This document shows, piece after piece, positions 12,751 to 50,069 of a DNA stretch of 64,000 nucleotides (the stretch's first letter is position 1; each line of letters begins with the position of its first letter). A program made the translations under genes and the position numbers. A model generated the notes under the pieces. It was not told the DNA's origin. It did not search any database and saw nothing but the letters and a program-made list of their open reading frames with translations. The stretch lies in NCBI GenBank assembly GCA_021108075.1, contig JAIORP010000090.1, forward strand, positions 79,828-143,827, in the 5' to 3' direction. Source of the DNA: Candidatus Omnitrophota bacterium. GTDB lineage: Bacteria > Omnitrophota > Gorgyraeia > Zapsychrales > Zapsychraceae.

Positions 12751-12796
12751 TTTAGTTGTGGTGAAATTAATGATTTTTAAAAAAATATAAAGAGGG

Positions 12797-29094: not shown

Positions 29095-29126
29095 ATGAGG
29101 GCCTTTGTCCTTATACGGATTTTTTT

Positions 29127-29198
29127 TGCCCTGTGGTGTAATTGGCAACACATGAGATTCTGGTTCTTAGATTCCAGGTTCGAGTCCTGGCGGGGCAG
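29127..29198 (+). tRNA. tRNA-Gln (CTG)
   Basis: Hand-folded with U1-A72 acceptor stem TGCCCTG/CGGGGCA, anticodon loop TTCTGGT and T-arm CCAGGTTCGAGTCCTGG. Confidence 0.75.
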
Positions 29199-29288
29199 TT
29201 TTTATAAGAAAGATAACGGGATCCGTCAATTTTTTATTTCAGGCCCCGACGAGAGATAAGCATGGAATAAAATGTGAAAGGATCGAAC

Positions 29289-33008: not shown

Positions 33009-33037
33009 TTGCTGGAAACAGCATATACCAGTATAAT
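33009..33037 (+). promoter_or_regulatory. Sigma70-type promoter TTGCTG-17-TATAAT for the PHP-uvrD unit
   Basis: Consensus spacing and -10. It overlaps a CTGG-N12-CCAG dyad. Confidence 0.45.
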
Positions 33038-33083
33038 AAAGGCTTCTTCACTAGGCTCAAAAAACATTAGGATTGTTAGACTT

Positions 33084-34370
33084 ATGAAATTCTATGCCGA
33101 TTTTCACATCCATTCACATTATTCAAGGGCAACAAGCAAACTATTGAACTTAGAACATTTGCAATATTGGGCGCAATTAAAAGGGCTTCAAGTTGTGGGG
33201 ACTGGTGATTTTGTTCATCCGGGATGGCTTGATGAACTTAAAGAAAAATTAGAACCAGCTGAAGAGGGGTTTTTTCGATTAAAGAAAGAATATGCCAATA
33301 GCGGTCCGGCACCGGTTCCTGAAAAATGCCGGGGGGAAGTCCGCTTTATGCTTGTTGTGGAAATTTCCAATATTTATAAAAAAGCGGATAAAGTCCGTAA
33401 GAATCATAATGTTGTTTTTGTTCCCTCTTTCCGTGCGGCAGATCTTTTACAGCAACGATTAGATGCGATTGGCAATATTCGCTCGGATGGCCGTCCTATT
33501 TTAGGATTAGACGCGCGTGATTTGCTGGAAATGGTCTTAGAGACAGATCCGTTATCTTTTTTGGTTCCTGCGCATATATGGACGCCCTGGTTTTCTGTTT
33601 TAGGATCAAAAAGCGGATTTGATCAGATAGAGGGGTGCTTTGGGGATTTAACGAAACATATTTTTGCTGTTGAAACAGGGTTGTCCTCGGATCCCCCGAT
33701 GAATTGGCGTTTAACACAGTTAGACCCGTTTGTTTTGATTTCAAATTCGGATGCGCATTCTCCTTCGAAATTAGCGCGGGAATTTAATATTTTTGAAACA
33801 AATTTTGACTATCCTTCGATTTATCAGTCCTTGAAGAATAAAAAAAATAAGGGTTTCAAAGGAACGGCTGAGTTTTTTCCCGAAGAAGGGAAATACCATT
33901 ATGACGGCCATCGCGCGTGTCAAGTCCGCTTAACCCCAGAGGAAACGATCAAGCAGAAAGGATTATGTCCTGTTTGCGGTAAACCTGTGACGGTCGGTGT
34001 CATGTCGAGAGTTGAGGCGTTAGCCGATCGGTCGCGAGGGGAGAAATCCGCCCGTTGGCGTCCATACCACAGTTTAATCCCTCTTCCTGAAATCATTTCT
34101 GAGGCAAAAGGTGTTGGCCCGAACTCGAAAACCGTGCAGAATATCTATCATCAGATGTTGCTGAAATTAGGACAGGAAGTCTATATATTAATGGATGCCC
34201 CTATTAATAATATAGAAAAGGTAGCGGGTGATTTAGTGGCTGAAGGTATTCGTCGTGTGCGCACGGGAGACGTGAATATTGCGGCTGGATATGATGGAGA
34301 ATATGGAAAAATTCAATTGATCAATCAGGAAGACCGCAAGGCCCGGGCGGGGCAACTGTCCTTATTTTAA
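33084..34370 (+). CDS. PHP-domain metal-dependent phosphoesterase with C-terminal Cys cluster (endonuclease Q-like)
   Basis: N-terminal FYADFHIHSHYSRATS (PHP motif I), further His/Asp motifs and a C-terminal CPVCGKP. The start is placed at the ATG downstream of the promoter because the track TTG at 33009 is the -35 box. Confidence 0.65.
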   Translation: MKFYADFHIHSHYSRATSKLLNLEHLQYWAQLKGLQVVGTGDFVHPGWLDELKEKLEPAEEGFFRLKKEYANSGPAPVPEKCRGEVRFMLVVEISNIYKKADKVRKNHNVVFVPSFRAADLLQQRLDAIGNIRSDGRPILGLDARDLLEMVLETDPLSFLVPAHIWTPWFSVLGSKSGFDQIEGCFGDLTKHIFAVETGLSSDPPMNWRLTQLDPFVLISNSDAHSPSKLAREFNIFETNFDYPSIYQSLKNKKNKGFKGTAEFFPEEGKYHYDGHRACQVRLTPEETIKQKGLCPVCGKPVTVGVMSRVEALADRSRGEKSARWRPYHSLIPLPEIISEAKGVGPNSKTVQNIYHQMLLKLGQEVYILMDAPINNIEKVAGDLVAEGIRRVRTGDVNIAAGYDGEYGKIQLINQEDRKARAGQLSLF

Positions 34371-34427: not shown

Positions 34428-36455
34428 GTGAATTCCTCTGAGCTCTGCTGCGAGGAGATTCACTGGGTGGAATCTTTTTTTTCTTTTAGAATGAAGAGAG
34501 TGATGAAAACGGACCCCGATAAAAGACCGCAAGATGTAAATATGTCTCAATGGCAAAGCATTTGCTATGAAGGACAAAACTTGCTGATCGTCGCGGGGCC
34601 GGGAACCGGAAAAACACATACACTGATATACCGTGTTCAAAGAAAAATACAGGCATTATCGGAACATCAAAAAATTTTAGCCATTACCTTCACGCATAAG
34701 GCCGCCCAACAGATGAAGGAACGTTTGGCCTCCAGACACACAAACATAGACGAGTTTGTTTTTGTTGGCACGTTCCATTCTTTTTGTATGGACCTTCTTC
34801 GGAAATACACGCAAGACGCCCGCCTGCCGGAGGAGTTCTCGATCATAACGGAACAGCAATTGAAATCTTATCAGTCCATATTTTTTCCGGACGAAAAGGC
34901 ACAGGAGATTCGACGGAAACTGAGAGAGATTTCTCATTGGAAGTCCACGCAGCTCGACCAGGACAACCCCGAACATGTTCAGGCGTATAATCACGTTCTA
35001 AGGCAGTGGGGCTTTTTAGATTATGATGATATTCTGCGGGAAACTGTTTTGTTTTTAACGGACAATGAAGATATTGCCGTTCAGATTTCTCAGCAATACC
35101 CATTTATTTTTGTTGATGAATATCAGGACATGAATCCTGTTCAGCATGCCTTATTAAAACGAATTATTAAAAAGGGCAGTCAATTAACAGCGATCGGAGA
35201 CCCGCAACAAGCGATTTATAGTTTTCGAGGTTCGGACGTGAAATTTTTTGACCAATTTGAAAAGGATTTTCCCGCCAGTCGTATATTGTCCTTACACGAT
35301 CATTACCGTTCGGCAGCGAATCTTTTGCAGGCGTCACAACAGGTTATTAGCGCCCGGGCTGCGTGTGACGTTCCTAAACTTGTCTCGCAGATTTATACGA
35401 AGGGTCAGCTCATTCATCATATTTCCCCGACGGATAAAGCGGAAGCTGAGTATGTTGTCCAGCAAATAGAGTCCCTGATGGAAGGCACAAGCATGTTTTC
35501 GCATGACTCGGGCCGGGTGGACGAGACAATCAAGCCCTTGGTGAGTTTTAAAGATATTGCCGTTTTTTACCGTTTGAATCATCAAAAAAAATTAATCGAA
35601 CAGGCCTTGTTCCGCAGCGGTATGCCCTATCAAACCTCCGGAGATTGTTCCCCGGGGGAACAAATGCCAGTGTATGATTTTATCACATACTTGAAATTCA
35701 TTTCAGGGCTGGGTATCAATACCGCTGATTTAATGTCGCTTGTTTTTTTATTAAAGGCCGTGACAAAAAAAGATCAATCTCTAACGATTAAAGAGATTCA
35801 AGCAAGCAGCCCTCAAACCATATATCTTGCTCAGATGGATGCGTGGTTGGATATCCGCCGTATGTTCAGGAATGTCGAAGGTGTACAGTTTTTTTGGTCT
35901 GAGTTAAGACGGATGGAAACTCAATCAAGGGGCAGCAATTTTCAGGAAGTCTTTGACAATGTTATGAAAAGCCAGGATTGGAATGTCGTTTTGAAAGGGA
36001 ATCGACCGTGGCTGGAACGGCTGGAAGGTTTGAGGAGACGCTTAAAGAAATTTTTGACCATGCGTTCTTTTTGTGATGACGTGCTGTTGCAGCGTGCGGA
36101 AGACAGTGACGATTATGCGGTCGAACGGATCCATTTGATGACATTGCACGCTTCGAAAGGGCTGGAATTCCCGGTGGTTTTTATTGTTGGATGTGAAGAC
36201 GGAATTTTACCCTACCGACGTGAAGGTGCAACCGATATGGAAGAAGAAAACAGGCTGTTTTATGTAGGTATGACCCGCGCCCAGCAGGTGTTGTACTTAA
36301 CACAGGCCCGGAAGCGTTATTGGTATGGAAAAAAAATGATGAATCCTGTCTCGCCTTTTGTGACATCGATTGAGTCCGCATTAAAAGACATGGATATTAC
36401 ACCAAAAAAACAGAATAAATTTAAGTCAACCGAACAACAAATCACCCTCTTTTAA
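34428..36455 (+). CDS. UvrD/PcrA-family ATP-dependent DNA helicase
   Basis: Walker A AGPGTGKTHTL, motifs VDEYQDMNPVQ, TLHASKGLEFPVVFI and YVGMTRA. The true start may be the ATG at 34491 or 34536. Confidence 0.85.
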   Translation: MNSSELCCEEIHWVESFFSFRMKRVMKTDPDKRPQDVNMSQWQSICYEGQNLLIVAGPGTGKTHTLIYRVQRKIQALSEHQKILAITFTHKAAQQMKERLASRHTNIDEFVFVGTFHSFCMDLLRKYTQDARLPEEFSIITEQQLKSYQSIFFPDEKAQEIRRKLREISHWKSTQLDQDNPEHVQAYNHVLRQWGFLDYDDILRETVLFLTDNEDIAVQISQQYPFIFVDEYQDMNPVQHALLKRIIKKGSQLTAIGDPQQAIYSFRGSDVKFFDQFEKDFPASRILSLHDHYRSAANLLQASQQVISARAACDVPKLVSQIYTKGQLIHHISPTDKAEAEYVVQQIESLMEGTSMFSHDSGRVDETIKPLVSFKDIAVFYRLNHQKKLIEQALFRSGMPYQTSGDCSPGEQMPVYDFITYLKFISGLGINTADLMSLVFLLKAVTKKDQSLTIKEIQASSPQTIYLAQMDAWLDIRRMFRNVEGVQFFWSELRRMETQSRGSNFQEVFDNVMKSQDWNVVLKGNRPWLERLEGLRRRLKKFLTMRSFCDDVLLQRAEDSDDYAVERIHLMTLHASKGLEFPVVFIVGCEDGILPYRREGATDMEEENRLFYVGMTRAQQVLYLTQARKRYWYGKKMMNPVSPFVTSIESALKDMDITPKKQNKFKSTEQQITLF

Positions 36456-36456
36456 A

Positions 36457-38322
36457 ATGAAATCAAAAAAACGACTTAAAATTTTATTTGTTTTAACCGT
36501 AACAACATGTTTTATTTCCGTCGGCTCCGCAGAGGAACCCCCGATCATGGATTTAGACAAGATTGTCATATCGGCCCACCGCACCGAAACCGATTTGGAT
36601 GATGCCGTTGATAATATTGACGTCTACTCTGAAGAATTTCTCGAGCAGTTGCCGGCTGATAATTTAGGTGAAGCCTTGCATTATTTGCCGGGGGTGGATG
36701 TTTTGATCAATGGCAGTTTCGGCCAGGCGAAAAACCTGACGATCTATGGGTCCCAGGTGCGCCATGTGCTGGTCGCCATTGACGGGATTCCCATGAATAC
36801 GCAATTATCAGGCCAAGCAAATCTGAGCCGTTTGCCTATAGGGATTATTCAAAGAATCGAAGTGATCAAGGGCCCGGCTTCAAGCGCATGGGGTTCCAGC
36901 CTGGGTGGCGTTATCAATGTCATCACAAAGCAAGCCCCCAAAGAAGACGGGCTAACAGGAGAATTTTCCGCTTCTTTTGCCGAACACCACACCTTTAAGG
37001 AGACCCTCAATTTATCGGGACGCTCAAAGAAAATAAGTTATTTTTTTTCGGGGAATCATATGATATCTGACGGGATCAAGTCAAAGTCCAGGGCAGAAGA
37101 AAATAAGTTTTATCAAAAAATCAGGTATGATCTGACGGATGATATGTCGGTAACAGGTTCTTTTGGATATACGGGCGCGCAGATCAGTGACGGCGTGAAT
37201 CCGAACAATCGGTGGTACCATCTACCCTATAACACGCGTTTTGGGAAACTTCAATGGGATACTCTTCAGGACGAACAGCAATGGCATGCGGCTTATAAAT
37301 ATAATGATCAGGATGTCACAACTGATTTTTATCACGCGACAACAGATGCCCTTCTTTCTTCGACGGTCAGCCATAACGTCTATCAGGGATTAAGTCTGAA
37401 TGGACACCGGCGGATTAACCCGCAATGTTTATTGGTGACGGGGGTTGATTTTGATTGGCATCGATTAAAATCGAACAATTATTTGGAAGAAGCAAAACAC
37501 GTCGCGATGCAATCTCCGTATGTCAATCTGTTTGTTGAAAAAGGCCCGTGGTCTTTCGTCCCTGGCCTCAGATATGATAACAACAACCGGTTTGGCGAAC
37601 AGGTGAGTCCGAGCTTTGGGATGGTGTATAAAAGTTTGACCTTTCCTGATTTGAGCATTCAAACAAAGGTGTCACGCGCGTTCAACGCTCCGCCGTTATT
37701 GTGGATTTATAATGAAGACCTCGCATGGCTGGTCGCGCCGAATCCTGATTTAAAAGCAGAAAGAGGCCTTGTTTATGAAATCGGAATAGATAAAGCGTTA
37801 ACGGATAAATTAGATGTGAAGTTGAATTTTTACCGGGCAGATATTAAAGACGCGATTGCGGTAACGTTTAACGGGACCGCTTTTCAATCAGAAAATTTTA
37901 AGAAATTCCGCCGGCAAGGAGTGGAATTGATTTGGGCGTACGATTTTTCTGATGAATGGCGAATTTTTGGGAGTGGCGCGTTCAATGATGTTGAGAACAG
38001 ACAGACAAAGGAAACCGTTCGCGATTCCAGCATCGCGCGGCAAAGCTATCAAATAGGCGTCAATTATCAATATCAAGAAGAATGGTTTGTCTATCTTTCC
38101 GGATTTTATAAGCGCTGGAGCTCTGCGGCCTCTTTGGAGCCGAATGACAGGAAAATTATTTTAGACCTGAGCGTTAAGAAAAAAATAAAGAATATTTTTA
38201 AGGAGAACGATCTGGATGTTTTTTTGAACATTCACAATATCACCAACAGCAAATACTGGGCTTCTATTAATAATCCCTTACCTGGCCGGTACTTTGAAGG
38301 AGGCTGTACCGTTTCTTTTTAA
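36457..38322 (+). CDS. TonB-dependent outer-membrane receptor
   Basis: Signal peptide, TonB-box-like DKIVISA, plug and barrel domains, and a terminal aromatic residue (...VSF). Confidence 0.85.
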   Translation: MKSKKRLKILFVLTVTTCFISVGSAEEPPIMDLDKIVISAHRTETDLDDAVDNIDVYSEEFLEQLPADNLGEALHYLPGVDVLINGSFGQAKNLTIYGSQVRHVLVAIDGIPMNTQLSGQANLSRLPIGIIQRIEVIKGPASSAWGSSLGGVINVITKQAPKEDGLTGEFSASFAEHHTFKETLNLSGRSKKISYFFSGNHMISDGIKSKSRAEENKFYQKIRYDLTDDMSVTGSFGYTGAQISDGVNPNNRWYHLPYNTRFGKLQWDTLQDEQQWHAAYKYNDQDVTTDFYHATTDALLSSTVSHNVYQGLSLNGHRRINPQCLLVTGVDFDWHRLKSNNYLEEAKHVAMQSPYVNLFVEKGPWSFVPGLRYDNNNRFGEQVSPSFGMVYKSLTFPDLSIQTKVSRAFNAPPLLWIYNEDLAWLVAPNPDLKAERGLVYEIGIDKALTDKLDVKLNFYRADIKDAIAVTFNGTAFQSENFKKFRRQGVELIWAYDFSDEWRIFGSGAFNDVENRQTKETVRDSSIARQSYQIGVNYQYQEEWFVYLSGFYKRWSSAASLEPNDRKIILDLSVKKKIKNIFKENDLDVFLNIHNITNSKYWASINNPLPGRYFEGGCTVSF

Positions 38323-38434: not shown

Positions 38435-40087
38435 ATGATGTCGAAAAAGAAAAAAATTTTTAATTTGTTATTTGTCATCCTTTTTATCTTATGCGTTGGT
38501 TTCTTTTTTAAAAACAATGTTTCCATAAAAATATACCGTCACTTTAAAGCAGCAATTTCAACGGAAACAGAAAGCACGTCACATAATGAAAAATATGGGG
38601 GCACGCTTGTCTTGGGAACATCCAACGCCCCTGCAATTATAAATCCGATACTTACGCAGCATAGCGTTTCAGTCATCCTGATAGGTTTAATTTTTGATTC
38701 ACTTATTCGTGTTGATGAATCCGGGAATGTTGTTCCGGGGCTGGCCTATAAATGGGACATTTCTGATGACGGCCTAGATTACATTTTTTACCTCAGAGAA
38801 GATGTTTATTTTCATGACGGTGTGCCATTAACCGCGGAAGATGTTAAGTTTACCTATGATTTGCACCGTTCCAAAAATATTCCGTCCTTCCGGTATGTGA
38901 GCTATGATGCGGTTCAAGACATCGTCGTTTTGGATAAATTGACAATAAAAGTTTCTTTGAAAAAGAAAAATATTTTTTTCCTGAGACGGCTATTGTCTTC
39001 CATCGTCCCCAAACATGTTTATGAGGGAAAGAATTTAGCTGAAGCGGATTTTAACTATGCGCCGGTTGGCAGCGGGATCTATAAATTTCATTCGTGGAAT
39101 AAAACAACGAATCAGATTGAATTGGTTGTCAATGAACATTATTTTGACGACCGGGCAAATTTAGACCGGATCATCATCCGGACATACAAAACGATTCCGC
39201 AATTATGGGCCGCGTTATTAAGAGGCGAAGTCGACCTCATAAAATATATTTCCCGCAAGGATTATAATGTTTTGAAAAAAGACCCGACTTTTCAGACATT
39301 TAAAATTGTTGGGTTTATCTTCTCGGCGATATATTTTAACCCGGACAGCCAGCTATTGTCAGACCCTGAGGTGCGCAAAGCCGTTTCGATGAGCATTGAT
39401 CGCAAACAATTGATTGATGCCTTGTCGCAAGGAGGCGCGGAATGCTATTCCCCCCTGTCGATGGACAGAGACAAAGAGAGTGACACATATCGCTATGATC
39501 CTTTAAAAGCAAAATTAAAACTCATGCACCGCGGTTGGATGGATGCGGATGGTGATGGGATATTAGAAAAGGATCTTCAGGATTTTGAAATACGCTTAAT
39601 GGTTAATCAACGCAGTGATTTTTTTACCAAATTAGCGCTTCTTTTACGGCAGCAGTTGAGCGAGGTCGGCATTAAGGTGACAATATTGTTATATGCCGAC
39701 GAGTCGGACTTGAATACGGATTATGTCCGAACGCATCGGGCCAACGCGTGGCTGCGTTTTTTTATGGGGGGAACGAGGGATGAAGATCGATTGTATCCTA
39801 TTCTCGGCACGTGGAGTTCATCTTCCAATCTGTTCGGTCAGATATGGAAATATCATAATCCGGAGATTGACCGCATTTTTAACGCTGTCAGCCAGGCGGA
39901 CAAACCTGATCGCGAAAAATTGTTCCGGCAGGCCGGTCAAATTTTATTCGAGGACCAACCGGTCAGTTGCCTGTTTTACACGGAAGATTATCACGCGGTT
40001 TCTGCCAGGATTAAAAATGTTGAATTTTTTTTTTATGGCTATGTGTCAGCTTATTCGATCAAAGATTGGTACATTCAAGATCATTAG
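38435..40087 (+). CDS. Solute-binding protein, family 5 (OppA/DppA-like peptide-binding), membrane-anchored
   Basis: N-terminal signal anchor and an SBP_bac_5-like core (GGTLVLGTSNAPAIINP...). No permease or ATPase genes are adjacent. Confidence 0.8.
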   Translation: MMSKKKKIFNLLFVILFILCVGFFFKNNVSIKIYRHFKAAISTETESTSHNEKYGGTLVLGTSNAPAIINPILTQHSVSVILIGLIFDSLIRVDESGNVVPGLAYKWDISDDGLDYIFYLREDVYFHDGVPLTAEDVKFTYDLHRSKNIPSFRYVSYDAVQDIVVLDKLTIKVSLKKKNIFFLRRLLSSIVPKHVYEGKNLAEADFNYAPVGSGIYKFHSWNKTTNQIELVVNEHYFDDRANLDRIIIRTYKTIPQLWAALLRGEVDLIKYISRKDYNVLKKDPTFQTFKIVGFIFSAIYFNPDSQLLSDPEVRKAVSMSIDRKQLIDALSQGGAECYSPLSMDRDKESDTYRYDPLKAKLKLMHRGWMDADGDGILEKDLQDFEIRLMVNQRSDFFTKLALLLRQQLSEVGIKVTILLYADESDLNTDYVRTHRANAWLRFFMGGTRDEDRLYPILGTWSSSSNLFGQIWKYHNPEIDRIFNAVSQADKPDREKLFRQAGQILFEDQPVSCLFYTEDYHAVSARIKNVEFFFYGYVSAYSIKDWYIQDH

Positions 40088-40133
40088 TCTGGCATTTATC
40101 GCGTAACAATAATGATGAAAGGAGGTGAAAATC

Positions 40134-40244
40134 ATGACCATTATTAAAAGAGGGCATAAAGAATTAAGCCAGGCTTCTATCCTTGCATGTTGCTGGCCTC
40201 CAGGGTGTGAAATCATGGATCTTCCATGGGAAGAAGGCGAGTAA
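40134..40244 (+). CDS. Candidate RiPP precursor peptide, 36 aa: MTIIKRGHKELSQASILACCWPPGCEIMDLPWEEGE
   Basis: Too short for the ORF track. Strong SD AAAGGAGGTG 7 nt upstream. It sits in the 46-bp gap between the SBP and the rSAM gene, and its C-terminal half is Cys/Trp-rich. Confidence 0.5.
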   Translation: MTIIKRGHKELSQASILACCWPPGCEIMDLPWEEGE

Positions 40245-40271
40245 GTTTTTAATCATTATTAATGTTACGGT

Positions 40272-41681
40272 GTGCTGTGGGTCCGCAGCACACCGCGCAG
40301 GGGAGATCGTGTGCTCTTATCCAAATATTGTGTCATTGTCCCTGATTACCCGTATAAAGGGCAGCACGTGGTGTTCCATACCGGGACCCAGGCCCTTGTT
40401 CTGCTCGATTCGCAGGCCCTGTCATACCTTAAAAATGAAATACGCTTAAATACATTGCCCCCTAAAAAACAAATAGAGTATCAAAAGATGCTTCCCGAAT
40501 TGCGTCAGATGGGGATACTTGTCAAAGACCAGCAGGAAGACGCCGCTTACCTTGAATCTTTTTTTGATCAGTTAAAACGTCAACGCATCAGAAAAACATG
40601 GCCTGTGACCATTTTGACAACAGACGCCTGCAATTTTCAATGCGTTTATTGTTTTGAGGAAAATGCCCGCCGCAATATTGCGATGAATTTAGAGGTGCAA
40701 ACAGACACACTGGCTTTCATCAAAAATCGGATGACCAGCGATAAATATGAACGGCTCTATGTGACTTTTTACGGGGGGGAGCCGTTATTAAAACCGGCGG
40801 TGATCACACATCTCGCTTCGAACTTAAAAAATTGGTCGAAGAAGGCGGGTGTCGTTTTTGAATTTATGCTCCAGACGAACGGCTATTTATTAAGCCCGAA
40901 TCTGGTGCGCTCCTTGATTCCGTTAGGTCTGGACCAGGTCCGTGTCAGCTTGGATGGTCCAAGAGATGTTCATGATGCGCGCAGACCGTTACGTTCGGGA
41001 GGGCGGACGTTTGATACGATTATAAAGAATATTTTAGCCAGCATGGATTCGATTAAAATTTGCGTTTCCGTCTGCTACGAGAAAGACCATTTGCAGGATA
41101 TCGACGCGCTTTTATCCTTTTTAAAGCAAAAAAATATGCTGCATCAATTGGGACGTTTTATTTTTTCCCCGATTCATCCCCGGTTAGGGACGCCTGAGGA
41201 TAAAAACCGCATTCAGCATTTTGATTGCATGATCAATTATCAAGACGCCAATTTGGTCCAATCGATTTCCGTGATACGAGACATATTAAAAACCTATGAT
41301 GTGGACGATAGCCGGAAGGGATTAGCGATTTCAGCCTGTCCTTTGATGCGCGAAAAAGGAGGTTTGACCATCGATCCGTGCGGGTATATTTACAAATGCA
41401 ATTCCATGATCGGTTTTTCGAAATTTTCCGTCGGTCAGGTGAAAGACGCACAGTTTAACCCGCGTGCGGATTATTTCGTGTCTTTAGATCCCTGGCGGTC
41501 CTGTCCGAATGATTGTCCGTATCTTCCCCTTTGTGGTGGGGGATGCCGGATGTCCGCGTACTTTAAATATAAAGATTTTAAAGAGCTGGACTGTCATCGT
41601 GATTATTTGGATCAGATGATACCGGTTTTTATCAAAGAAGAATATACCCGTTTGACGACCGAAAAGCAGTATTCCTCATGA
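40272..41681 (+). CDS. Radical SAM/SPASM-domain peptide-modifying enzyme (AnSME/sactisynthase-like)
   Basis: CNFQCVYC (CxxxCxxC) follows a ~115-aa N-terminal extension that resembles a peptide-recognition domain. C-terminal SPASM Cys clusters (CPLM...CGYIYKC...CPNDCPYLPLCGGGC). The GTG start is uncertain. Confidence 0.85.
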   Translation: MLWVRSTPRRGDRVLLSKYCVIVPDYPYKGQHVVFHTGTQALVLLDSQALSYLKNEIRLNTLPPKKQIEYQKMLPELRQMGILVKDQQEDAAYLESFFDQLKRQRIRKTWPVTILTTDACNFQCVYCFEENARRNIAMNLEVQTDTLAFIKNRMTSDKYERLYVTFYGGEPLLKPAVITHLASNLKNWSKKAGVVFEFMLQTNGYLLSPNLVRSLIPLGLDQVRVSLDGPRDVHDARRPLRSGGRTFDTIIKNILASMDSIKICVSVCYEKDHLQDIDALLSFLKQKNMLHQLGRFIFSPIHPRLGTPEDKNRIQHFDCMINYQDANLVQSISVIRDILKTYDVDDSRKGLAISACPLMREKGGLTIDPCGYIYKCNSMIGFSKFSVGQVKDAQFNPRADYFVSLDPWRSCPNDCPYLPLCGGGCRMSAYFKYKDFKELDCHRDYLDQMIPVFIKEEYTRLTTEKQYSS

Positions 41682-41831: not shown

Positions 41832-42206
41832 TATTTTAAGTTTATGCCTGTCCGTGCAGAAGCGAACGCAGGTCAAGGACAGCTTATCTGCAACGGTGAT
41901 CGAATACAAGACAGAACTCCTGCTGCCCGTGTTTGCCGGATTTGTCTGCGATAGATCCGGAGAATAAAAGCTAAGGAATATTACTTGAGCGACAAAACCG
42001 GCTTAAATTGTTGGATTTATCGTTGAAAACATCGCGAAGGCCTTCATTCTGCCAGAAGCTTGAATGGCGGCTGACATTGCGGGTATATGCTCCAGGCAGG
42101 AGAGTATAAATATCTTTTGATAATAGCTGGATATTATAGTAAATTAAACTAAGAATAATTTAAAGATAGAGATCGAAGGAAAATAGTATCTGTATGCTGT
42201 CCTGCT

Positions 42207-44012
42207 ATGAAATCATTCTACCTAAAGTTAAGAAATTTTATGCCCCGCCGTATCTGGTCGCAGATCTTTATCGTCCTTATTATCGCGGTTATTGTTCCCC
42301 TTTCTCTCCTCGGATTTCTTCTTACGAGTACCAGCCAGGAAGCTGTTAAAGTCAGTGTTTTGCGGGATTACAAGCAAATTGCGACACAAGCTACCGGTGA
42401 AATTAGTCAACACATTTTAGGTGCGAGACAAGCTTTGAGTGTGACGGCGTCTATTTTAGGCACATTGCATGCAGATAGGTGGCGGCAAGAAACAACCATC
42501 GTTGAGTTAGCATTAAAATATCCTATTTTTACCCGCATTGCCTCCATTGATAAAAGCGGACTGGAAATAACAACATCACAGTTAGGAGCACCGCTTCAAA
42601 ACAGAGCAGGGGATGTGCCTTTTATAGAGGCGATGAAAGGCGTGGAATATTTATCTGCCGTCATATTAGCGGACAATTATATCCCTCAAATGACAATGGC
42701 CGTGCCGATTAAACGCCTAGGAAAAATTCAGGGGGTTTTATTGGCGAACCTGAACTTGCGTACGGTTTGGGATATCGTCGACAAGTTGCGTTTTGGCCAA
42801 ACAGGGGAGGCCGTCATCATTGATCAGACAGACCGGGTGATTGCCCATCAGGACAAAAAATTGGTTTTGAATAATCCCAAAAATTACATTGACGGTTTTT
42901 TGAAATATATTCAGCCTGGTGTTAGCGGTAGCGCAGAAATCGTCGATAACAGTAATCGCGGGGTGATCATTGCCTACGCTCCGATAACGGATTTGAATTG
43001 GAAATTGATTATCTTTCAAAAACAAGAAGAAGCGTACTCATTTCTGAAAAAGATGCAATATCAATCACAGATTATTTTTATTTTTAGTCTGGTCATAACG
43101 ATTTTTATTAGTATCTTTCTTGCCCGGTGGATGAGCCAGCCTTTAAACAAAATTATCCAGGGGACCCAAAAAATAGCCCAAGGTGATTTTTCTCAATTTT
43201 TACGCGTACAGCGTCGAGATGAAATTGGTAAATTGTTCTTTTCTTTTAATCGCATGACGCGACGCCTGCGGGAAGCGAGAAAAGTGGAGAAATTGTCCAT
43301 TATTGGAAAAGCTGCCGCGGCGATTGCTCACGAATTAAAGAATTCCTTGGTTCTTGTCAATACGTTTATTGAATTGTTGCCGAAAAGGCACAAGGACCAG
43401 AAATTTATTAAAGAATTTTTTCAAACGGTTCCTCAGGAGTTGGAATCCTGGAACACCATGTTAAAAAATATGATGAGTATTAACCCTCCGGAACTAGAGA
43501 ATATTCCTTTCAGTGAACTTTCGATTAATGTGATTGTCAAAAATATAATCACATTGGTGCAGATGAAAGCCGACCAAAAAGACATTGCAATCAAATTATC
43601 ATTTGATGAAGCCAATCCTGTGGTCCAATGCAATGAAGAAAAAATAAGACACGCGATTCTAAATATTATGACAAATGCCTTAGATGCCACCCCTTATGGG
43701 GGAGAGGTGGAAATACAAACAAAATGCATTTTGCGTTGCCAGGATCGGTTGGAGTCTAAGGTGGAAATTGTGATTATAAATAGTGGCCAACATATTGATG
43801 AATCAAAGATCGATAAAATTTTTGAGCCGTTTTATACCACGAAAGGGGGTGGATTCGGTTTGGGCTTAGCGATTAGCATGGAAATCGTCAAAGCTCATAT
43901 GGGTACGATTACGGTTGTGAATCAATTTCCGCAGGGCGTTGTCTTTACCATTATTTTGCCTTCCAAGAACGTTTCTGCTTCGACACCATCTAAGACCAAA
44001 TTCAATAAATAA
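42207..44012 (+). CDS. Sensor histidine kinase (2 TM, extracytoplasmic sensor domain, HAMP, HisKA, HATPase)
   Basis: TM1, a ~260-aa periplasmic domain, TM2, HAMP, H-box IAHELKNSL and G-boxes GGFGLGL. Confidence 0.85.
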   Translation: MKSFYLKLRNFMPRRIWSQIFIVLIIAVIVPLSLLGFLLTSTSQEAVKVSVLRDYKQIATQATGEISQHILGARQALSVTASILGTLHADRWRQETTIVELALKYPIFTRIASIDKSGLEITTSQLGAPLQNRAGDVPFIEAMKGVEYLSAVILADNYIPQMTMAVPIKRLGKIQGVLLANLNLRTVWDIVDKLRFGQTGEAVIIDQTDRVIAHQDKKLVLNNPKNYIDGFLKYIQPGVSGSAEIVDNSNRGVIIAYAPITDLNWKLIIFQKQEEAYSFLKKMQYQSQIIFIFSLVITIFISIFLARWMSQPLNKIIQGTQKIAQGDFSQFLRVQRRDEIGKLFFSFNRMTRRLREARKVEKLSIIGKAAAAIAHELKNSLVLVNTFIELLPKRHKDQKFIKEFFQTVPQELESWNTMLKNMMSINPPELENIPFSELSINVIVKNIITLVQMKADQKDIAIKLSFDEANPVVQCNEEKIRHAILNIMTNALDATPYGGEVEIQTKCILRCQDRLESKVEIVIINSGQHIDESKIDKIFEPFYTTKGGGFGLGLAISMEIVKAHMGTITVVNQFPQGVVFTIILPSKNVSASTPSKTKFNK

Positions 44013-44222: not shown

Positions 44223-44285
44223 GGATTGAAACTATTTACAAATTATAAAAATTGCGTAAGAATAATAGAAACGGAGGGGGAGGAA

Positions 44286-45038
44286 ATGATATCTGAAAGA
44301 ATCGTGGTTATTGATGACAACATGAAAATTATCAAAAGTATTAAAATGGCGTTGATCGAGTATGAAATTATCGATTTCCCCTGCGGGGAAAAAGCCATTG
44401 AGTTTTTTAAAAAACCAAATGAGATTAACCTGGTGCTTTTGGATGTCTTTATGGATGGGATGAACGGCATAACTGTCTTGAAAGAATTAAAAAAAGTGAA
44501 CAAAGATTTATCCGTTATCATTATGACGGCCTATGGCTCAAAGGATATTGTTTTACAGGCCTTGCGCAGCCATGCGGATGACTTTATAGAGAAACCGTTT
44601 AACATTAATGATTTAAAAGGAAAGATAAAGAATATTTTGAAGGAAAAAATCTATCTTTCATGCGCCAATTCTTCCAAAGAAGAGCAGATTGACCGCATTA
44701 AACGTTTTATCGACCGGAATTACAATAATGCTAACTTAGAATACATTTCAAACGAACTTTGCATAAGTCCTAAATATTTAAGCCGTATGTTTAACCGAAA
44801 GAGCAACTGTTCTTTTCGGACTTATAAACTCGGTGTCAAAATAGCTAAAGCAAAGTATTTTCTTAAAGAGACGAATATAAATGTTAGTGAAATTGCTGTT
44901 GAATTGGGATATCAGAACCCGGAATCGTTTATGCGGATTTTTAAGAAGATAACGACGATGACACCTATGCAGTATCGGAAAAAGTTTAACCTTAAACAAC
45001 ATCGATCAAACAATATGAAAGCTGCCGTATCATTTTAA
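44286..45038 (+). CDS. Response regulator with AraC-type HTH output domain
   Basis: REC domain (VVIDDN...LLDVFMDG...) plus a C-terminal AraC/XylS HTH. SD GGAGGGGGAGG. Confidence 0.8.
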   Translation: MISERIVVIDDNMKIIKSIKMALIEYEIIDFPCGEKAIEFFKKPNEINLVLLDVFMDGMNGITVLKELKKVNKDLSVIIMTAYGSKDIVLQALRSHADDFIEKPFNINDLKGKIKNILKEKIYLSCANSSKEEQIDRIKRFIDRNYNNANLEYISNELCISPKYLSRMFNRKSNCSFRTYKLGVKIAKAKYFLKETNINVSEIAVELGYQNPESFMRIFKKITTMTPMQYRKKFNLKQHRSNNMKAAVSF

Positions 45039-45041: not shown

Positions 45042-46226
45042 ATGATGAAAAAAATATTAATCGTTGATGATGATAATTGCACACGTTTATCGATTAAACG
45101 TCTCTTATCCTCATATGATGTGATTGAAGCCAATCATGGGCAAGCTGCTATCGAGCTGGTTCAGAAGCATGCCCCCGATCTTATTCTCCTAGACCAAATG
45201 ATGCCGCAAATGGATGGGTTGGAAGTTTTAAAAAGAATTAAGGCGATCGACGAGGATATTCAATGTGTGATTGTGACGGCACAGGGCACGTTGCAGTTAG
45301 CCGTGCAAAGTTTGAAGCACGGGGCATTGGATTTCATTGTGAAACCGTTCGAGGCCTTTGTTCTTTTGCATACGGTTGAGCGGGCTTTAGAGCACGTGGA
45401 CCTCATTCAATCCAAACGTAAAGTGGGTCAGGAAAAGGAAAAAGCACAGGCAGAGTTGCTGCATTATAAAAATGATTTGGAAAAGATTGTCGAAGAAAGA
45501 ACAAAAGAGTGCAAAGAGGCGCAACAGAAAGCAGAAAAGGCGAATAAGGCAAAGTCTGAATTTCTCGCTAATATGAGCCATGAACTGCGGACACCGATGC
45601 ATGGAATTTTGAGTTTTTCTAAGTTTGGTGTCGAACGGTATCAAGGGGAAAAGAGAGAGACATTAAGGGACTATTTTGGGGAAATAAAAAGTTGTGGCGA
45701 CCGCTTGCTCAACCTGTTGAATGATTTGCTGGATTTGTCAAAATTAGAAGCGAACAAAGTCCAGTATCAATTTAATCCTGTTTGCATTCAAGATTTTTTT
45801 CAATCTGTCGTGGATGAACTGAAGGCCTTTTCCGCTGAAAATGGAATCGAGTTGAAGTTGGACGGCAATGCTTTGACGGAAACCGTTAACCTTGATAAAG
45901 AAAAAATGGTTCAAGCCCTCCAGAATTTATTATCTAACGCCATTAAATTTTCTGCGAAGGACAAAGCGGTTGTCTTGTCGGCGGAGCATCGGCAAGAGCA
46001 TTTTTTGATCGCTGTTCAAGACAATGGCATTGGAATTCCGGATGAGGATTTAGATACTATTTTTGACACGTTTTATCAAAGTCAGCTGACAAAGTCAAAA
46101 GATCAGGGCTCAGGTTTAGGTTTATCCATCGCACGCAAGATCATATCGGATCATAACGGATTGGTCTGGGCTGAAAATAATCCGGATGGCGGCGCGATTT
46201 TTTATATCCTCCTGCCGAAGGATTAA
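45042..46226 (+). CDS. Hybrid signalling protein: N-terminal receiver (REC) + HisKA + HATPase (cytoplasmic)
   Basis: REC (LIVDDD...LLDQMMPQMDG), coiled-coil, H-box MSHELRTPM and G-boxes GSGLGLSIA. Confidence 0.85.
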   Translation: MMKKILIVDDDNCTRLSIKRLLSSYDVIEANHGQAAIELVQKHAPDLILLDQMMPQMDGLEVLKRIKAIDEDIQCVIVTAQGTLQLAVQSLKHGALDFIVKPFEAFVLLHTVERALEHVDLIQSKRKVGQEKEKAQAELLHYKNDLEKIVEERTKECKEAQQKAEKANKAKSEFLANMSHELRTPMHGILSFSKFGVERYQGEKRETLRDYFGEIKSCGDRLLNLLNDLLDLSKLEANKVQYQFNPVCIQDFFQSVVDELKAFSAENGIELKLDGNALTETVNLDKEKMVQALQNLLSNAIKFSAKDKAVVLSAEHRQEHFLIAVQDNGIGIPDEDLDTIFDTFYQSQLTKSKDQGSGLGLSIARKIISDHNGLVWAENNPDGGAIFYILLPKD

Positions 46227-46238
46227 GGGGGTGTCGTT

Positions 46239-47327
46239 ATGAAAACAGAAGAAAAGTTTTTTGTGGACGCGACGAAAAATAGAATCTTAATTGTTGATGA
46301 TGAACATGTCAATATCCGGATTCTTAAGACCATTCTATCTGACGATTATGATTTGACCGAAGCTTCTTCAGGGGAAGAAGCTATTGAACTGGCCGAAAGC
46401 CAAAAATTTGATTTGATCCTATTGGACATTATGATGCCGGGCAAGGATGGTTATGAGGTCTGTCGTTATTTGAAGACCAGTAAAAGGCATGCAACCATTA
46501 AAACGATTTTGGTATCAGCCCGGGCGATGCTGGAAGAGCGCTTGAGGGGATACGAGTGTGGAGCGGATGATTATATCGTTAAACCGTTTGACGGGGATGA
46601 GCTTCTTTCAAAAGTAAAAGTTTTTTTACGTTTAAAGTCGATGGCCGAGATCGAAGAGATTAAAGGCAATTTATTAAAACTGATTGCGCACGAACTTCGA
46701 ACCCCGTTAAACGGCCTATTAGGGTTTGCGGCTTTATTAGAAAAAAGCAAAACGATTAGTGATGGTGATAAGCAATATGTTATGCACATTCTTAGCTGCG
46801 GGAATCGGCTGCTGGAGTTCTCTCAAAAAGCACTTTTATTATGTGACCTAAAAAGCAATTATAAGATAACTAAAAAAGACAGGCATTTAGTCAAAATACT
46901 GGAAGAGACCATCCGCTCTCTTCAATGGAAGGCCGTGGATAAAAAAATACGCTTTTGTGTTGTCAATAAAATGGATAAAGTCGCAGCGTTTGATCCAATG
47001 ATGATGAATTTTGCTATTCGGTTTGTTCTTGATAATGCCATTAAGGTTTCACCTCAAGAAAGTGAAATTGCTATACATATTGAAGAGAAGAACGACTGGT
47101 GTTATATTCATATCCAAGACCAGGGTCCTGGCATCAGCAATGGGCAGATGGATCAAATTTTTCAATTGTTTATTGTGGATGATGTGATGCAGCATAGAAA
47201 TGGCCAGGGGCTGAGTTTGCCTATAACCAGAGAGATTATGCGTTTGCATCAAGGACGCCTGCGAATATGTAATAATCCATCCTCAGGGGCAACAGTTGAA
47301 TTGTCTTTTCCCCTTGTAAGTGAATAA
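46239..47327 (+). CDS. Second REC + HisKA + HATPase hybrid kinase
   Basis: REC (ILIVDDEHVN...LLDIMMPGKDG), H-box IAHELRTPL and HATPase (NGQGLSLPI). Confidence 0.8.
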   Translation: MKTEEKFFVDATKNRILIVDDEHVNIRILKTILSDDYDLTEASSGEEAIELAESQKFDLILLDIMMPGKDGYEVCRYLKTSKRHATIKTILVSARAMLEERLRGYECGADDYIVKPFDGDELLSKVKVFLRLKSMAEIEEIKGNLLKLIAHELRTPLNGLLGFAALLEKSKTISDGDKQYVMHILSCGNRLLEFSQKALLLCDLKSNYKITKKDRHLVKILEETIRSLQWKAVDKKIRFCVVNKMDKVAAFDPMMMNFAIRFVLDNAIKVSPQESEIAIHIEEKNDWCYIHIQDQGPGISNGQMDQIFQLFIVDDVMQHRNGQGLSLPITREIMRLHQGRLRICNNPSSGATVELSFPLVSE

Positions 47328-47476: not shown

Positions 47477-47489
47477 ATTGGAGGTTGCT

Positions 47490-50069
47490 ATGATAAATTT
47501 TGAAAAATTAACCGCTAAAAGTAAAAGCTCTGTCCAGAAGGCGATGGAGCTGGCAGCAGCTTTGAAACACCAACAGATTGAATCGAATCATTTATTGTAT
47601 GCCATCCTGAAGGATGACGATAGCCCGGTTCTCGGGGTCCTTGAAAAGATGGATGTTGCTCTTGATAGCTTAAGGGCTTCGCTCGAAGAGACGTTTCAAA
47701 AAAAATCACAAGTGGAAGGCCAATACCAACCCTATATCTCGAACAGCCTTAATCAAGTTTTCCAGTCTTCTCAAAAAATATCTCAGGATTTTAAAGATCA
47801 CTTTATTGCCCTGGAACATTTATTTTTAGCTTTGTGTCAGGAAAACGATCTGTTAAAAAAAGAGTTGAAGTCGAACAATATTGATTTTTTAAAAATAAAA
47901 GAAAGTTTTAAGCAGATGCGGGGGGCCCAGCAGGCAAATGATGAGTTTGCGGAAAGCAAATATCAGGCCTTAGAAAAGTACGCTCATAATTTAACTAAAA
48001 GCGCACAAAAAGGCGAATTAGATCCCGTGATCGGACGTGATAATGAAATAAGGCGGGTTATACAGGTTTTGTCCCGTCGGAAAAAAAATAATCCTGTCTT
48101 AATCGGTGAACCTGGCGTTGGAAAAACGGCCTTGGCCGAGGGATTGGCACAACGGATATATCTTGGCGATGTTCCTGAAGGACTGAAAAAAAAACAGGTG
48201 ATGAGTTTAGATATGGGGGCTCTCGTGGCGGGGACGAAGTATCGCGGCGAATTTGAAGATCGCTTAAAAGCCGTTTTAAAAGAAATCGAAGCCAGAGATG
48301 GTGACATTATCCTATTTATCGATGAACTGCATATGATCGTCGGGGCTGGAAAAACGGAAGGGGCCATGGATGCGTCGAACATGCTTAAGCCTGCCTTAGC
48401 CAGAGGGACTTTGCGCTGTATCGGGGCGACAACCTTAGATGAGTATCGGAAACACATTGAAAAAGATGCCGCCCTGGAACGCCGTTTTCAGCCTGTTGTT
48501 ATTGAAGAACCATCGTTGGAAGATACCATTACCATATTAAGAGGATTGAAAGAGCGGTATGAAATCCATCATGGGGTAAGGATTCAAGACGGTGCGATTA
48601 TTGCGGCGGCAACCCTTTCACAGCGTTATATTACAGACCGTTTTTTACCGGACAAAGCGATTGATTTGATCGATGAGGCCGCATCCGCTATCCGCATTGA
48701 CATCGATAGTATGCCGCATGAACTTGATAAAAGTAATCGGCGGATCCGACAATTAGAAATTGAAAGGCAAGCCTTAAAGAAAGAAAAGGATAAGGCGTCA
48801 AAAGATCGGTTAAAGAAATTGGAAGAGGAGCTGGAAAATATACAAGAAAAAAATCGTGCCTTGCATATGAAATGGAAAAGAGAAAAAGACGCGATTTCGT
48901 CCATTCGATACATTAAAACAGAGATTGAGCAAGCCAGAGTATTAGAATCGCAATATGAAAAAGAAGGAAATTTGGAGCGGGTCGCGGAAATTCGTTATGG
49001 CAAACTCATTGAGCTGGAAAAAAAACTGGAGCGGGACAATGAAGCTTTAGCCCGGATTCAAAAGAAAGAAGCGCTGTTAAAAGAAGAGGTCGATGATCAG
49101 GATATCGCGGCCGTTGTTTCCCGTTGGACAAAAATCCCTCTTTCAAAGTTGATGGAAGGAGAGACGCAAAAATTGATGCATCTAGAAGAATATTTGCATA
49201 AACGGGTTGTTGGTCAGGATGATGCGATTGGCCTGATCGCGGCCTGTCTTCGGCGTGCAAGGACAGGGTTGCATGATCCCCGGAGACCCCTGGGTTCTTT
49301 TTTATTTGTCGGGCCAACCGGTGTGGGCAAGACAGAGTCAGCGAAGTCCCTGGCGTCGTTATTGTTTAATGATGAACATGCGTTAATTCGAATTGATATG
49401 AGCGAATATATGGAAAAACATAGTGTTTCACGTTTGTTCGGGGCACCTCCGGGATACGTGGGATACGATGAAGGTGGCCAGTTGACGGAAAGTGTCCGGC
49501 GCAAACCCTATTCTGTTGTGTTGTTTGATGAAATCGAAAAAGCCCATCAGGATGTTTTCAACGCATTGTTACAGATATTAGACGAAGGGCATTTAACAGA
49601 TAATCATGGTCGCAGGATCAATTTTAAGAACACGATTATCATCATGACCTCCAATATCGGTTCAGATATTATTTTAGAACTGGATAATATGGAAGAAATA
49701 AATGCGTCCATCCAATCTGCCCTGGCCGGGAAATTCCGGCCGGAATTTTTGAACCGTATTGATGAGACGATTGTTTTTCACCGATTGGAGAAACAACACA
49801 TGATTGAGATTCTGGATATTTTATTAAAACAAATAAATCAACGCCTGCAAGTTAAAAACCGTTTGATCAAATTGACGGAGGAAGCCAGGGAGTGGATCGC
49901 CCAAAAAGGATATAACCCTGCTTATGGCGCGCGGCCGTTAAAGCGACTTGTCCAAAAAATAATCGAAAATCCTTTAGCGATGAAAATTTTAAAGGGAGAT
50001 TTTCCTGAAGGAAAAAAGATTGAAATCGGCTGTGATGACAAGGCAGAGTTGGTTTTTAAATTATATTAG
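47490..50069 (+). CDS. clpB: Chaperone ClpB (AAA+ disaggregase)
   Basis: Clp_N, two AAA modules (GEPGVGKTA; GPTGVGKTE) and a long middle coiled-coil. The ATG at 47490 follows the GGAGG SD. The track begins at an upstream TTG. Confidence 0.9.
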   Translation: MINFEKLTAKSKSSVQKAMELAAALKHQQIESNHLLYAILKDDDSPVLGVLEKMDVALDSLRASLEETFQKKSQVEGQYQPYISNSLNQVFQSSQKISQDFKDHFIALEHLFLALCQENDLLKKELKSNNIDFLKIKESFKQMRGAQQANDEFAESKYQALEKYAHNLTKSAQKGELDPVIGRDNEIRRVIQVLSRRKKNNPVLIGEPGVGKTALAEGLAQRIYLGDVPEGLKKKQVMSLDMGALVAGTKYRGEFEDRLKAVLKEIEARDGDIILFIDELHMIVGAGKTEGAMDASNMLKPALARGTLRCIGATTLDEYRKHIEKDAALERRFQPVVIEEPSLEDTITILRGLKERYEIHHGVRIQDGAIIAAATLSQRYITDRFLPDKAIDLIDEAASAIRIDIDSMPHELDKSNRRIRQLEIERQALKKEKDKASKDRLKKLEEELENIQEKNRALHMKWKREKDAISSIRYIKTEIEQARVLESQYEKEGNLERVAEIRYGKLIELEKKLERDNEALARIQKKEALLKEEVDDQDIAAVVSRWTKIPLSKLMEGETQKLMHLEEYLHKRVVGQDDAIGLIAACLRRARTGLHDPRRPLGSFLFVGPTGVGKTESAKSLASLLFNDEHALIRIDMSEYMEKHSVSRLFGAPPGYVGYDEGGQLTESVRRKPYSVVLFDEIEKAHQDVFNALLQILDEGHLTDNHGRRINFKNTIIIMTSNIGSDIILELDNMEEINASIQSALAGKFRPEFLNRIDETIVFHRLEKQHMIEILDILLKQINQRLQVKNRLIKLTEEAREWIAQKGYNPAYGARPLKRLVQKIIENPLAMKILKGDFPEGKKIEIGCDDKAELVFKLY

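Follow-up and report, generated by a model that had tools for sequence, protein, structure and literature searches.

The 64,000-nucleotide (64-kb) stretch of contig JAIORP010000090.1 analysed here, hereafter the window, comes from a Candidatus Omnitrophota bacterium and contains, in close succession, a 36-codon open reading frame (ORF) and the gene for a radical S-adenosylmethionine (SAM)/SPASM enzyme. We examined the two as the putative precursor and dedicated maturase of a ribosomally produced peptide with post-translational modifications (RiPP), related to the system that NCBIfam calls geopeptide, together with the receptor, binding-protein, kinase and regulator genes that surround them. 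The features of the pair itself are the following (nt, nucleotides; aa, amino acids).

40118..40127, + strand: Shine-Dalgarno (SD) sequence AAAGGAGGTG, read from the sequence, with a 6-nt spacer to the precursor ATG
40134..40244, + strand: putative precursor peptide gene, 36 aa, with a leader of approximately residues 1-17, a core from C19-C20-W-P-P-G and an acidic, variable C-terminal tail
40268..40295, + strand: 12-bp GC-rich hairpin without a U-tract, directly 3' of the precursor stop codon
40311..41681, + strand: radical-SAM/SPASM peptide maturase gene, 456 aa, GTG start, ribosome-binding site GGGGAG at 40300-40305

Direct reading of 40134-40244 gave the product MTIIKRGHKELSQASILACCWPPGCEIMDLPWEEGE, 36 aa followed by a stop. 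An earlier note, made from the letters of this DNA, had described the 36-codon ORF, and it is present with a strong SD, whose spacer measures 6 nt rather than 7 nt. The same AAAGGAGGTG is likewise placed in L081, the closest metagenomic relative, whose enzyme is 73% identical. Across 14 aligned peptides, C19, C20 and P22 were invariant and G7 nearly so. The leader carries the family motif h-I-I-x-x-G, and the Omnitrophota branch conserves the pattern M-x-[IV]-I-x-x-G ... L-x-C-C-W-P-P-G. The note had proposed a core of ACCWPPGC plus Lys and Trp residues, of which CCWPPG is conserved; conservation does not extend to the third Cys (C25), to the tail Trp (W32) or to the Lys residues (F, T and N/E in relatives). 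The third Cys was ruled out as part of the motif, since L081 has F at this position and other peptides have T or S. A streptide-like Lys-Trp cross-link was likewise set aside as unlikely, because the Lys residues and the tail Trp vary among relatives. The exact window peptide is already in public protein collections as an unnamed gene; hence, it lacks a functional annotation, as had been stated, yet gene callers do detect it.

Between the window and L081, the peptide gene differs by 9 synonymous and 16 non-synonymous codons, with synonymous changes falling within the CCWPPG codons. The ratio of non-synonymous to synonymous substitution rates (dN/dS) was 0.156 for the peptide gene and 0.154 for the enzyme; dS exceeds 1 and is saturated in this comparison, so that all dN/dS values given herein are approximate. 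Neither a second CCW peptide nor a second maturase was found anywhere in the window, and a consensus scan revealed no sigma-70 promoter directly 5' of the peptide gene.

The longest ORF downstream of the peptide opens at GTG 40272, 27 nt past the peptide stop, and encodes 469 aa, which is how the enzyme had been described. Its true start, however, is almost certainly GTG 40311, yielding 456 aa and a 66-nt gap from the precursor stop, because the identical public protein is 456 aa long (P0001, a Candidatus Omnitrophica/Omnitrophota entry with 100% identity), because the N-termini of 31 homologues fit the consensus MKLS... (M-[KL]-L-S) at this position, and because the L081 orthologue opens with MLLSQY. 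The alternative start at 40272 would fall within the 12-bp hairpin.

The CxxxCxxC motif that had been reported for this enzyme was borne out as CNFQCVYC at residues 107-114 (CX3CX2C; C107, C111, C114), PF04055 Radical_SAM matched with 58.4 bits (cutoff 29.5), and Pfam also found Fer4_12. An N-terminal extension is present as claimed, but spans ~100 aa with the corrected start instead of ~115 aa. Toward the C-terminus, we found a seven-Cys SPASM pattern (C343-X14-G358-X4-C363; C398-X3-C402-X5-C408-X3-C412; C428) in which the second motif is CX3C instead of CX2C, and the radical-SAM/SPASM Cys motifs were invariant across the 31 homologues. This agrees with the SPASM motifs noted earlier, although the Pfam SPASM profile (PF13186) gave no match. 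Neither that hidden Markov model (HMM) nor the PqqD HMM matched the enzyme even at E = 10; thus, assignment of the SPASM region and of a RiPP recognition element (RRE) rests on the Cys motifs and the predicted structure. In an AlphaFold2 (AF2) model built on the 31-sequence alignment, with a mean predicted local distance difference test (pLDDT) score of 92.5, the N-terminal unit (residues 7-90), which precedes the barrel, consists of strands 7-11, 18-23 and 29-33 followed by helices 34-40, 51-66 and 74-90, at a pLDDT of at least 90, and residues ~1-90 are predicted to form an RRE-like winged helix. The best PDB fold match was CteB (5wgg/5why; E = 3e-20; template modelling score 0.65-0.70 over ~470 aligned columns, full length), which is also the best sequence match among solved structures. 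TigE, the anaerobic sulfatase-maturating enzyme (anSME), ChlB and SuiB followed, and only CteB and TigE aligned with the AF2 model over its full length.

Conservation of the pair was assessed in 81 loci, comprising 80 loci with relatives of the enzyme from one-genome-per-species collections and the metagenomic L081. Absence of the small ORF from relatives had been named as an outcome adverse to the proposed pair; instead, an alignable small ORF adjoins the homologous enzyme in 65 of the 81 loci. Homologous short peptides near the enzyme, which the note had suggested searching for, were found 5' of it in 35 of these loci, each encoded by a small ORF behind an SD, 23-260 nt 5' of the enzyme, and each with the invariant Cys-Cys and an N-terminal region that can be aligned. 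These 35 loci span five groups, Omnitrophota (e.g. MEIIKLGTEDVLEMAVLSCCWPPGTRSNTSPEPE, plus ten alike), Planctomycetota (e.g. MKLVVIRKGARTGSQLNVFCCPPMTFPSTKG), Auribacterota (one related precursor peptide), Nitrospirota (e.g. MKKRISILKKGIDKKAGPTGFCCYAGFLPLRS) and Geobacterales (e.g. MAIEVLDEGVESTEMVSTCCTATSARS). The L081 precursor, MIVINPGHKELDQVSMLGCCWPPGFEQLDMPTEDDA, had already been called as a gene by JGI (Joint Genome Institute). On this breadth of conservation, the small ORF at 40134-40244 is a real, conserved gene, far beyond chance.

A further 30 loci, mostly from Acidobacteriota, have a related peptide with a single Cys just 3' of the enzyme, e.g. MKITVIKKATTTRKPQNFCPWIMDEITEKKN. In these Acidobacteriota-type peptides the leader is rich in K (MKIxVIKKA...), and the spacing C-x4-[D/E] recurs, e.g. 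in FCPWIQDE, which suggests a Cys-Asp/Glu cross-link in this branch. Example loci are L017 (7581-7673), L019, L021, L022, L029, L033 and L036, among others. Separately, a Myxococcota locus (L023, 7231-7545) encodes three tandem 22-aa precursor copies (MKI[EQ]KGQKVTNPNPVRCPGTLF) 3' of the maturase. In some Nitrospirota precursors the CC core is preceded by a long N-terminal extension that is rich in Lys/Ala/Thr and resembles histone H1, for totals of 44-81 aa (L024, 5704-5949; L037, 5550-5789; L048, 5511-5645).

With respect to family, the top NCBIfam match of the enzyme was TIGR04280, 'geopeptide radical SAM maturase', at 263.7 bits, short of its curated cutoff of 400, in an alignment that runs end to end (protein 1-444 to profile 1-424 of 428). 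Lower ranks were occupied by CefB (159.5 bits), TIGR04463 (158), FlmE/OhkG (138), Clo7bot (117), PapB (115), DynA (95), QhpD (91) and SCIFF (87). As a control, the Geobacterales and Nitrospirota enzymes scored 577-677 bits on TIGR04280, and those of Omnitrophota, Planctomycetota, Auribacterota and Acidobacteriota scored 258-308 bits. The window peptide itself had no match to TIGR04229, the geopeptide precursor HMM (cutoff 30 bits), even at E = 10; one Omnitrophota CCWPPG peptide reached 20.6 bits (E = 2.7e-4), and among four Geobacterales-type peptides one attained the cutoff (35 bits) and the rest scored 27, 25 and 20 bits. In layout the window pair corresponds to a geopeptide precursor and maturase, with C19-C20 and a stop 66 nt before the maturase start, an arrangement present in 35 loci. 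Thus, although no known class could be named in the earlier note, the pair is a divergent relative of NCBIfam 'geopeptide' (TIGR04229/TIGR04280) that scores under both cutoffs. Because enzyme and peptide fall under these cutoffs while TIGR04280 ranks first, the pair is, on sequence grounds, a homologous sister branch of the geopeptide system, with a CCWPPG core and outside the curated family.

The same searches bear on whether the ORF is spurious and the enzyme an anSME-type or other non-RiPP SPASM enzyme acting on a substrate encoded elsewhere. An anSME was indeed among both the structural and the sequence matches. However, the anaerobic sulfatase maturase model TIGR03942 ranked twelfth, after eleven peptide-maturase families, at 74.2 bits against a cutoff of 349; hence, the grouping with anaerobic sulfatase-maturating enzymes that the note had named as adverse was not seen. 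Moreover, the window enzyme has a predicted RRE-like N-terminal domain, and CteB and TigE were its only full-length structural counterparts. To our knowledge, published descriptions of anSMEs include no N-terminal RRE-like domain. The small ORF is also conserved across phyla under purifying selection. By the HMM ranking, the peptide conservation and the dN/dS values, an anSME-type enzyme beside a spurious ORF is effectively refuted.

The spacer between precursor and enzyme is structured as well. RNA folding of 40240-40315 (76 nt) gave -31.3 kcal/mol (z = -4.75 versus shuffles), and the 66-nt spacer holding the hairpin, 40245-40310, gave -23.6 kcal/mol. The L081 hairpin is equivalent, with base changes that keep the pairing, and a strong hairpin occurred at the same intergenic position in all 23 related loci that were folded, several of them followed by U-runs. 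A hairpin between precursor and enzyme genes is the usual layout for producing an excess of precursor message. Probably, then, it sets the precursor:enzyme ratio by stabilising or attenuating the transcript, a role that we infer since the window hairpin has no U-tract. The reading of the pair as RiPP precursor and radical-SAM/SPASM maturase, first put forward in the earlier note, is supported by the cross-phylum small ORF, the HMM ranking, the CteB fold and the conserved hairpin, and we regard a precursor-maturase relationship between the two genes as close to certain.

The pair is embedded in a module of genes on one strand with short gaps, in the order TonB-dependent receptor, family-5 solute-binding protein (SBP), precursor, maturase, kinase and AraC-type regulator (TM, transmembrane segment; HTH, helix-turn-helix).

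36457..38322, + strand: TonB-dependent outer-membrane receptor, 621 aa (Pfam PF07715 Plug and PF00593 beta-barrel), with no N-terminal signalling extension
38435..40087, + strand: periplasmic solute-binding protein of family 5, 550 aa (Pfam SBP_bac_5, 243 bits), with an N-terminal signal/anchor
42081..42176, + strand: exporter pseudogene relic, the C-terminal 32 codons, GYMLQAGEYKYLLIIAGYYSKLN*E*FKDRDR, with two in-frame stops
42207..44012, + strand: sensor histidine kinase (Pfam), arranged TM - periplasmic dCache 51-269 - TM - HAMP - HisKA - HATPase
44226..45038, + strand: response regulator with AraC-type HTH output (Pfam Response_reg and HTH_18)

By tblastn, the window gene order is kept in Omnitrophota and in one locus each of Planctomycetota and Auribacterota, and a receptor homologue is equally placed in Omnitrophota, Planctomycetota, Auribacterota and Nitrospirota loci. 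The SBP, whose nearest solved relatives are the peptide/nickel binders 4oet and AppA (1xoc), lies directly 5' of the precursor in Omnitrophota loci and beside the kinase in Acidobacteriota. In Omnitrophota, Planctomycetota and Auribacterota a homologous kinase comes after the maturase or the exporter, and in Acidobacteriota it comes after the SBP. The AraC-type regulator is conserved after the kinase in Omnitrophota, and a sigma-54-activating regulator is present instead in Geobacterales and Acidobacteriota. Nitrospirota and Geobacterales, the true geopeptide loci, encode a receptor, a PF04392-family binder, a HAMP kinase and a sigma-54-activating regulator. Acidobacteriota loci run from a sigma-54 regulator through maturase, peptide and family-5 binding protein to a dCache kinase. 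Overall, the kinase and regulator were present in every phylum-level group, while the binder family varied, and no permease or ATPase of an inner-membrane ABC importer was seen among the genes identified in the loci examined, nor near the window SBP.

Within the Acidobacteriota, 14 of 19 loci have a sigma-54 promoter-like element, TGGAAC-N6-TTGC[A/T], 16-119 nt 5' of the maturase (63-119 nt in 13), which ties the adjacent sigma-54-activating regulator to the peptide operon and in 9 of the 14 is the sole such site in the 13-kb locus. Positions of this element include 5898 in L029, 5881 in L033, 5822 in L045, 5877 in L046 and 5896 in L068, among others. Geomesophilobacter sediminis Red875 (L066), a cultured isolate, carries the receptor/PF04392 binder/maturase system in two copies (3694-7140 and 9120-12939), one of them complete; the maturase match of the second runs past the end of the L066 stretch, and a precursor was identified only for the first.

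Beyond the module, a 453-aa ORF without a Pfam match (33009-34370) lies just 5' of a UvrD-type helicase gene (34428-36455), which ends, with its stop codon, 1 nt from where the receptor gene begins. A UvrD-type gene is directly 5' of the receptor in L081 too, and in the Omnitrophota loci L002, L004, L005, L007 and L010 regulator or kinase genes were the only matches 5' of the receptor. The AraC-type regulator gene is followed, at 45042-47327, by another two genes for hybrid receiver-kinases (394 and 362 aa), and the stretches from distant relatives end before the counterpart of this position. The window as a whole (1-64000) is an unusually long co-oriented stretch, with 46 of its 47 ORFs of at least 150 aa on the + strand and the lone - strand ORF overlapping a ClpB-like ORF (47478-50069). 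It also contains a 6S RNA (54 bits, 22215-22370), a cluster of tRNA-Cys, tRNA-Leu and tRNA-Val (5213-5547) and a separate tRNA-Gln (29126-29199). In the window scan, neither a riboswitch nor any other known RNA turned up close to the locus. GC content was 0.409 for the locus and 0.407 for the window, and this comparison of composition gave no sign of horizontal transfer.

In most relatives, an MsbA-type ABC exporter (569-586 aa, with no C39 peptidase domain) lies between maturase and kinase. It is intact in L001, L002, L004-L007 and L010-L012; the eight other Omnitrophota loci and the Auribacterota locus have it, and it was not detected in the Planctomycetota loci. The maturase-kinase gap in the window is only 525 bp, and within it tblastn placed the relic, which matches positions 548-579 of the L004 exporter (586 aa) at 50% identity, with E = 3e-6 for the gap and 5e-4 for the whole window. 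L081 shares the deletion, with a weaker trace of the relic. On the strength of these traces, the exporter is deleted in the window lineage, and any export in this genome would have to use another, unlinked transporter.

Loss of the exporter might have left the peptide and maturase here as non-functional passengers in a decaying remnant, and in this connection the exporter is down to a 32-codon relic with two stops and the window peptide is atypical for its clade (a GHKEL leader, and C for T after CCWPPG). Yet the deletion is common to L081, and since that shared event none of the five remaining genes (receptor, binder, peptide, maturase and kinase) has been disrupted, their dN/dS being 0.04-0.16 (receptor 0.089, kinase 0.036, versus L081) at dS > 1. 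The high dS indicates that the split following exporter loss is old, and low dN/dS at such distance argues that the remaining system is under selection. Since the SD, the hairpin and the Cys motifs are all kept as well, we consider decay highly improbable.

Taken together, these data make it likely that the locus encodes a RiPP precursor and its dedicated maturase, in a sister branch of the geopeptide system, with a product that is secreted, re-imported and sensed. In this reading, the precursor would be transcribed together with the upstream receptor and binding-protein genes, and the hairpin would raise the precursor:enzyme message ratio. The leader (M-x-I-I-x-x-G...) would dock as a beta-strand on the N-terminal RRE-like winged helix of the enzyme, the CX3CX2C cluster would cleave SAM, and the 5'-deoxyadenosyl radical would take a hydrogen from the core. 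The sulfur of C19 and/or C20 would then be joined to the radical carbon with the help of the SPASM auxiliary clusters, giving one or two thioether rings (-2 Da each). Such Cys-derived thioether chemistry is slightly favoured, because Cys alone among the core residues is conserved universally and the nearest characterized relatives, CteB, PapB and QhpD, make thioethers.

In most relatives the adjacent MsbA-type ABC exporter would secrete the product, and in the window genome an unlinked transporter would be needed. The TonB-dependent receptor would re-import the product over the outer membrane, the family-5 periplasmic protein would bind it, and the dCache kinase and AraC-type regulator would sense it in an autoinduction-type loop. 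Secretion and re-import appear fairly probable, in that receptor, permease-less binder, kinase and regulator persist despite non-orthologous swaps, which suggests a peptide that is exported, retaken and sensed in the periplasm. The same genes bear on an antimicrobial role, in which the product would be a bacteriocin-like sactipeptide or ranthipeptide, and the receptor, binder and kinase would serve unrelated nutrient sensing or control production in response to another ligand. Many characterized radical-SAM thioether peptides are antibiotics (PMC10114670), and the ancestral cluster includes an ABC exporter. A producer, however, would not normally be expected to co-transcribe an outer-membrane importer for its own toxin. 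Moreover, there is no immunity gene or peptidase-domain transporter, the exporter being without a C39 domain, and in one phylum after another the pair is accompanied by receptor, binder and kinase, including where non-orthologous replacements have occurred. For these reasons an antimicrobial is improbable.

As to what a secreted, re-imported and sensed product would be for, we tentatively propose signalling rather than metal acquisition, because the kinase and regulator are in every phylum-level group, the binder family varies, and there is no importer permease. Quorum signals are among the reviewed roles of radical-SAM/SPASM peptides (PMC10114670). A metallophore would follow methanobactin-like logic, being secreted, binding Ni, Cu, Co or Zn through Cys-derived groups, and being recovered by the receptor and the NikA/Opp-family binder, with the two-component system reporting metallophore status. 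Receptor, binder, exporter, small Cys peptide and modifying enzyme together make up the layout of a methanobactin operon. Such operons encode an exporter, a TonB-dependent transporter and a binding protein, with no obvious inner-membrane importer beside the binder (PMC3621798). Additionally, the closest solved SBP relative is a Campylobacter peptide/nickel-type binder, the NikA and CntA models also match, and vicinal Cys-Cys could plausibly act as a soft-metal ligand. Nevertheless, a radical-SAM thioether would use up thiol, the Acidobacteriota branch has one Cys only, and in Geobacterales and Nitrospirota the binder is swapped for PF04392 while kinase and regulator persist. Furthermore, the locus showed no gene for a metal regulator, a permease or a reductase and no riboswitch, and the receptor reached no specific NCBIfam equivalog, including those for siderophore, B12 and haem. 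We therefore view a metallophore as unlikely. More specifically, the module could be a diderm peptide-pheromone circuit, in which a radical-SAM peptide is exported, re-imported through the TonB-dependent receptor and passed by a permease-less binder to a Cache/HAMP kinase, an idea that we offer as speculative.

Several points count against the overall reading of a secreted, re-imported and sensed product of a geopeptide-related pair. To the shortfalls on both geopeptide models and the silent SPASM and PqqD HMMs is added that the family as a whole conserves no acceptor residue, and for this reason the cross-link cannot be placed. Other radical-SAM chemistries are possible, such as a C-C cyclophane on W21, formylglycine-type oxidation or epimerisation. 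Gene neighbourhood by itself does not separate signalling from a metallophore, and no consistent sigma-54 site was found 5' of the precursor in Geobacterales or Nitrospirota loci. The missing dedicated exporter weakens the secretion and re-import steps for the window genome. Finally, all data derive from metagenome-assembled genomes.

To date, the geopeptide family exists as database HMMs only: in the literature searched, we found no paper on it, no description of a conserved receptor/binder/kinase context around such a maturase, and nothing relevant on FlmE/OhkG/CefB, and an Omnitrophota survey of biosynthetic gene clusters names no such system. The loci assembled here indicate a family much broader than the curated models, with CCWPPG, CC-small and single-Cys CPW...D/E branches that span at least six mostly uncultivated, largely anaerobic phyla. 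Its consistent association with genes for outer-membrane import, for periplasmic binding and for a two-component system provides a testable hypothesis of a re-imported, sensed peptide in diderms, for which Geomesophilobacter sediminis Red875 is a possible culturable entry organism. Were the pheromone circuit true, it would represent an undescribed RiPP cell-cell signalling class in Omnitrophota, Planctomycetota, Auribacterota, Nitrospirota, Geobacterales and Acidobacteriota, of which 'geopeptide' would be the first member to have been named. If the Cys-Cys chemistry is not a plain thioether, it would be a new radical-SAM transformation.

Among known systems, those of methanobactin are alike in that genes for export, TonB-dependent import, periplasmic binding and regulation accompany a small Cys precursor (PMC3621798). 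In contrast, the modifying enzyme here is a radical-SAM/SPASM protein and regulation is by a two-component system instead of sigma/anti-sigma factors; no MbnB/MbnC-type annotation occurred among the seven locus genes scanned against Pfam. LuxP/LuxQ and TorT/TorS are binding-protein-dependent sensor kinases, and they share with the window module a periplasmic binding protein that has no permease of its own and is encoded next to a kinase whose periplasmic sensor is of the PAS/Cache type. Unlike those systems, the module includes a TonB-dependent receptor, and its presumed ligand is a genome-encoded modified peptide.

The thioether maturases CteB/SCIFF and PapB/QhpD combine RRE, radical-SAM and SPASM regions, an architecture predicted for the window enzyme too, and act on Cys substrates encoded beside the enzyme. 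However, the window enzyme falls far under the cutoffs of these families (PapB, 115 versus 340 bits; SCIFF, 87 versus 425; QhpD, 91 versus 453), and its precursor has neither the SCIFF six-Cys pattern nor CX3D repeats. The closest likeness is to geopeptide (TIGR04229/TIGR04280), which shares a precursor of 27-36 aa with an h-x-h-h-x-x-G leader, invariant Cys-Cys and a short tail, a precursor gene just 5' of the enzyme with a hairpin between, and a neighbourhood with genes for a TonB-dependent receptor, a periplasmic binder, a kinase and a regulator. The two differ in the core, which is CC plus small residues plus S-x-R in geopeptide and CCWPPG plus an acidic tail in the window, and in their partners, which are a PF04392 binder and a sigma-54-type regulator at geopeptide loci but SBP_bac_5 and an AraC-type regulator in the window. 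Unlike geopeptide, moreover, the window branch has an ancestral cluster that includes an ABC exporter.

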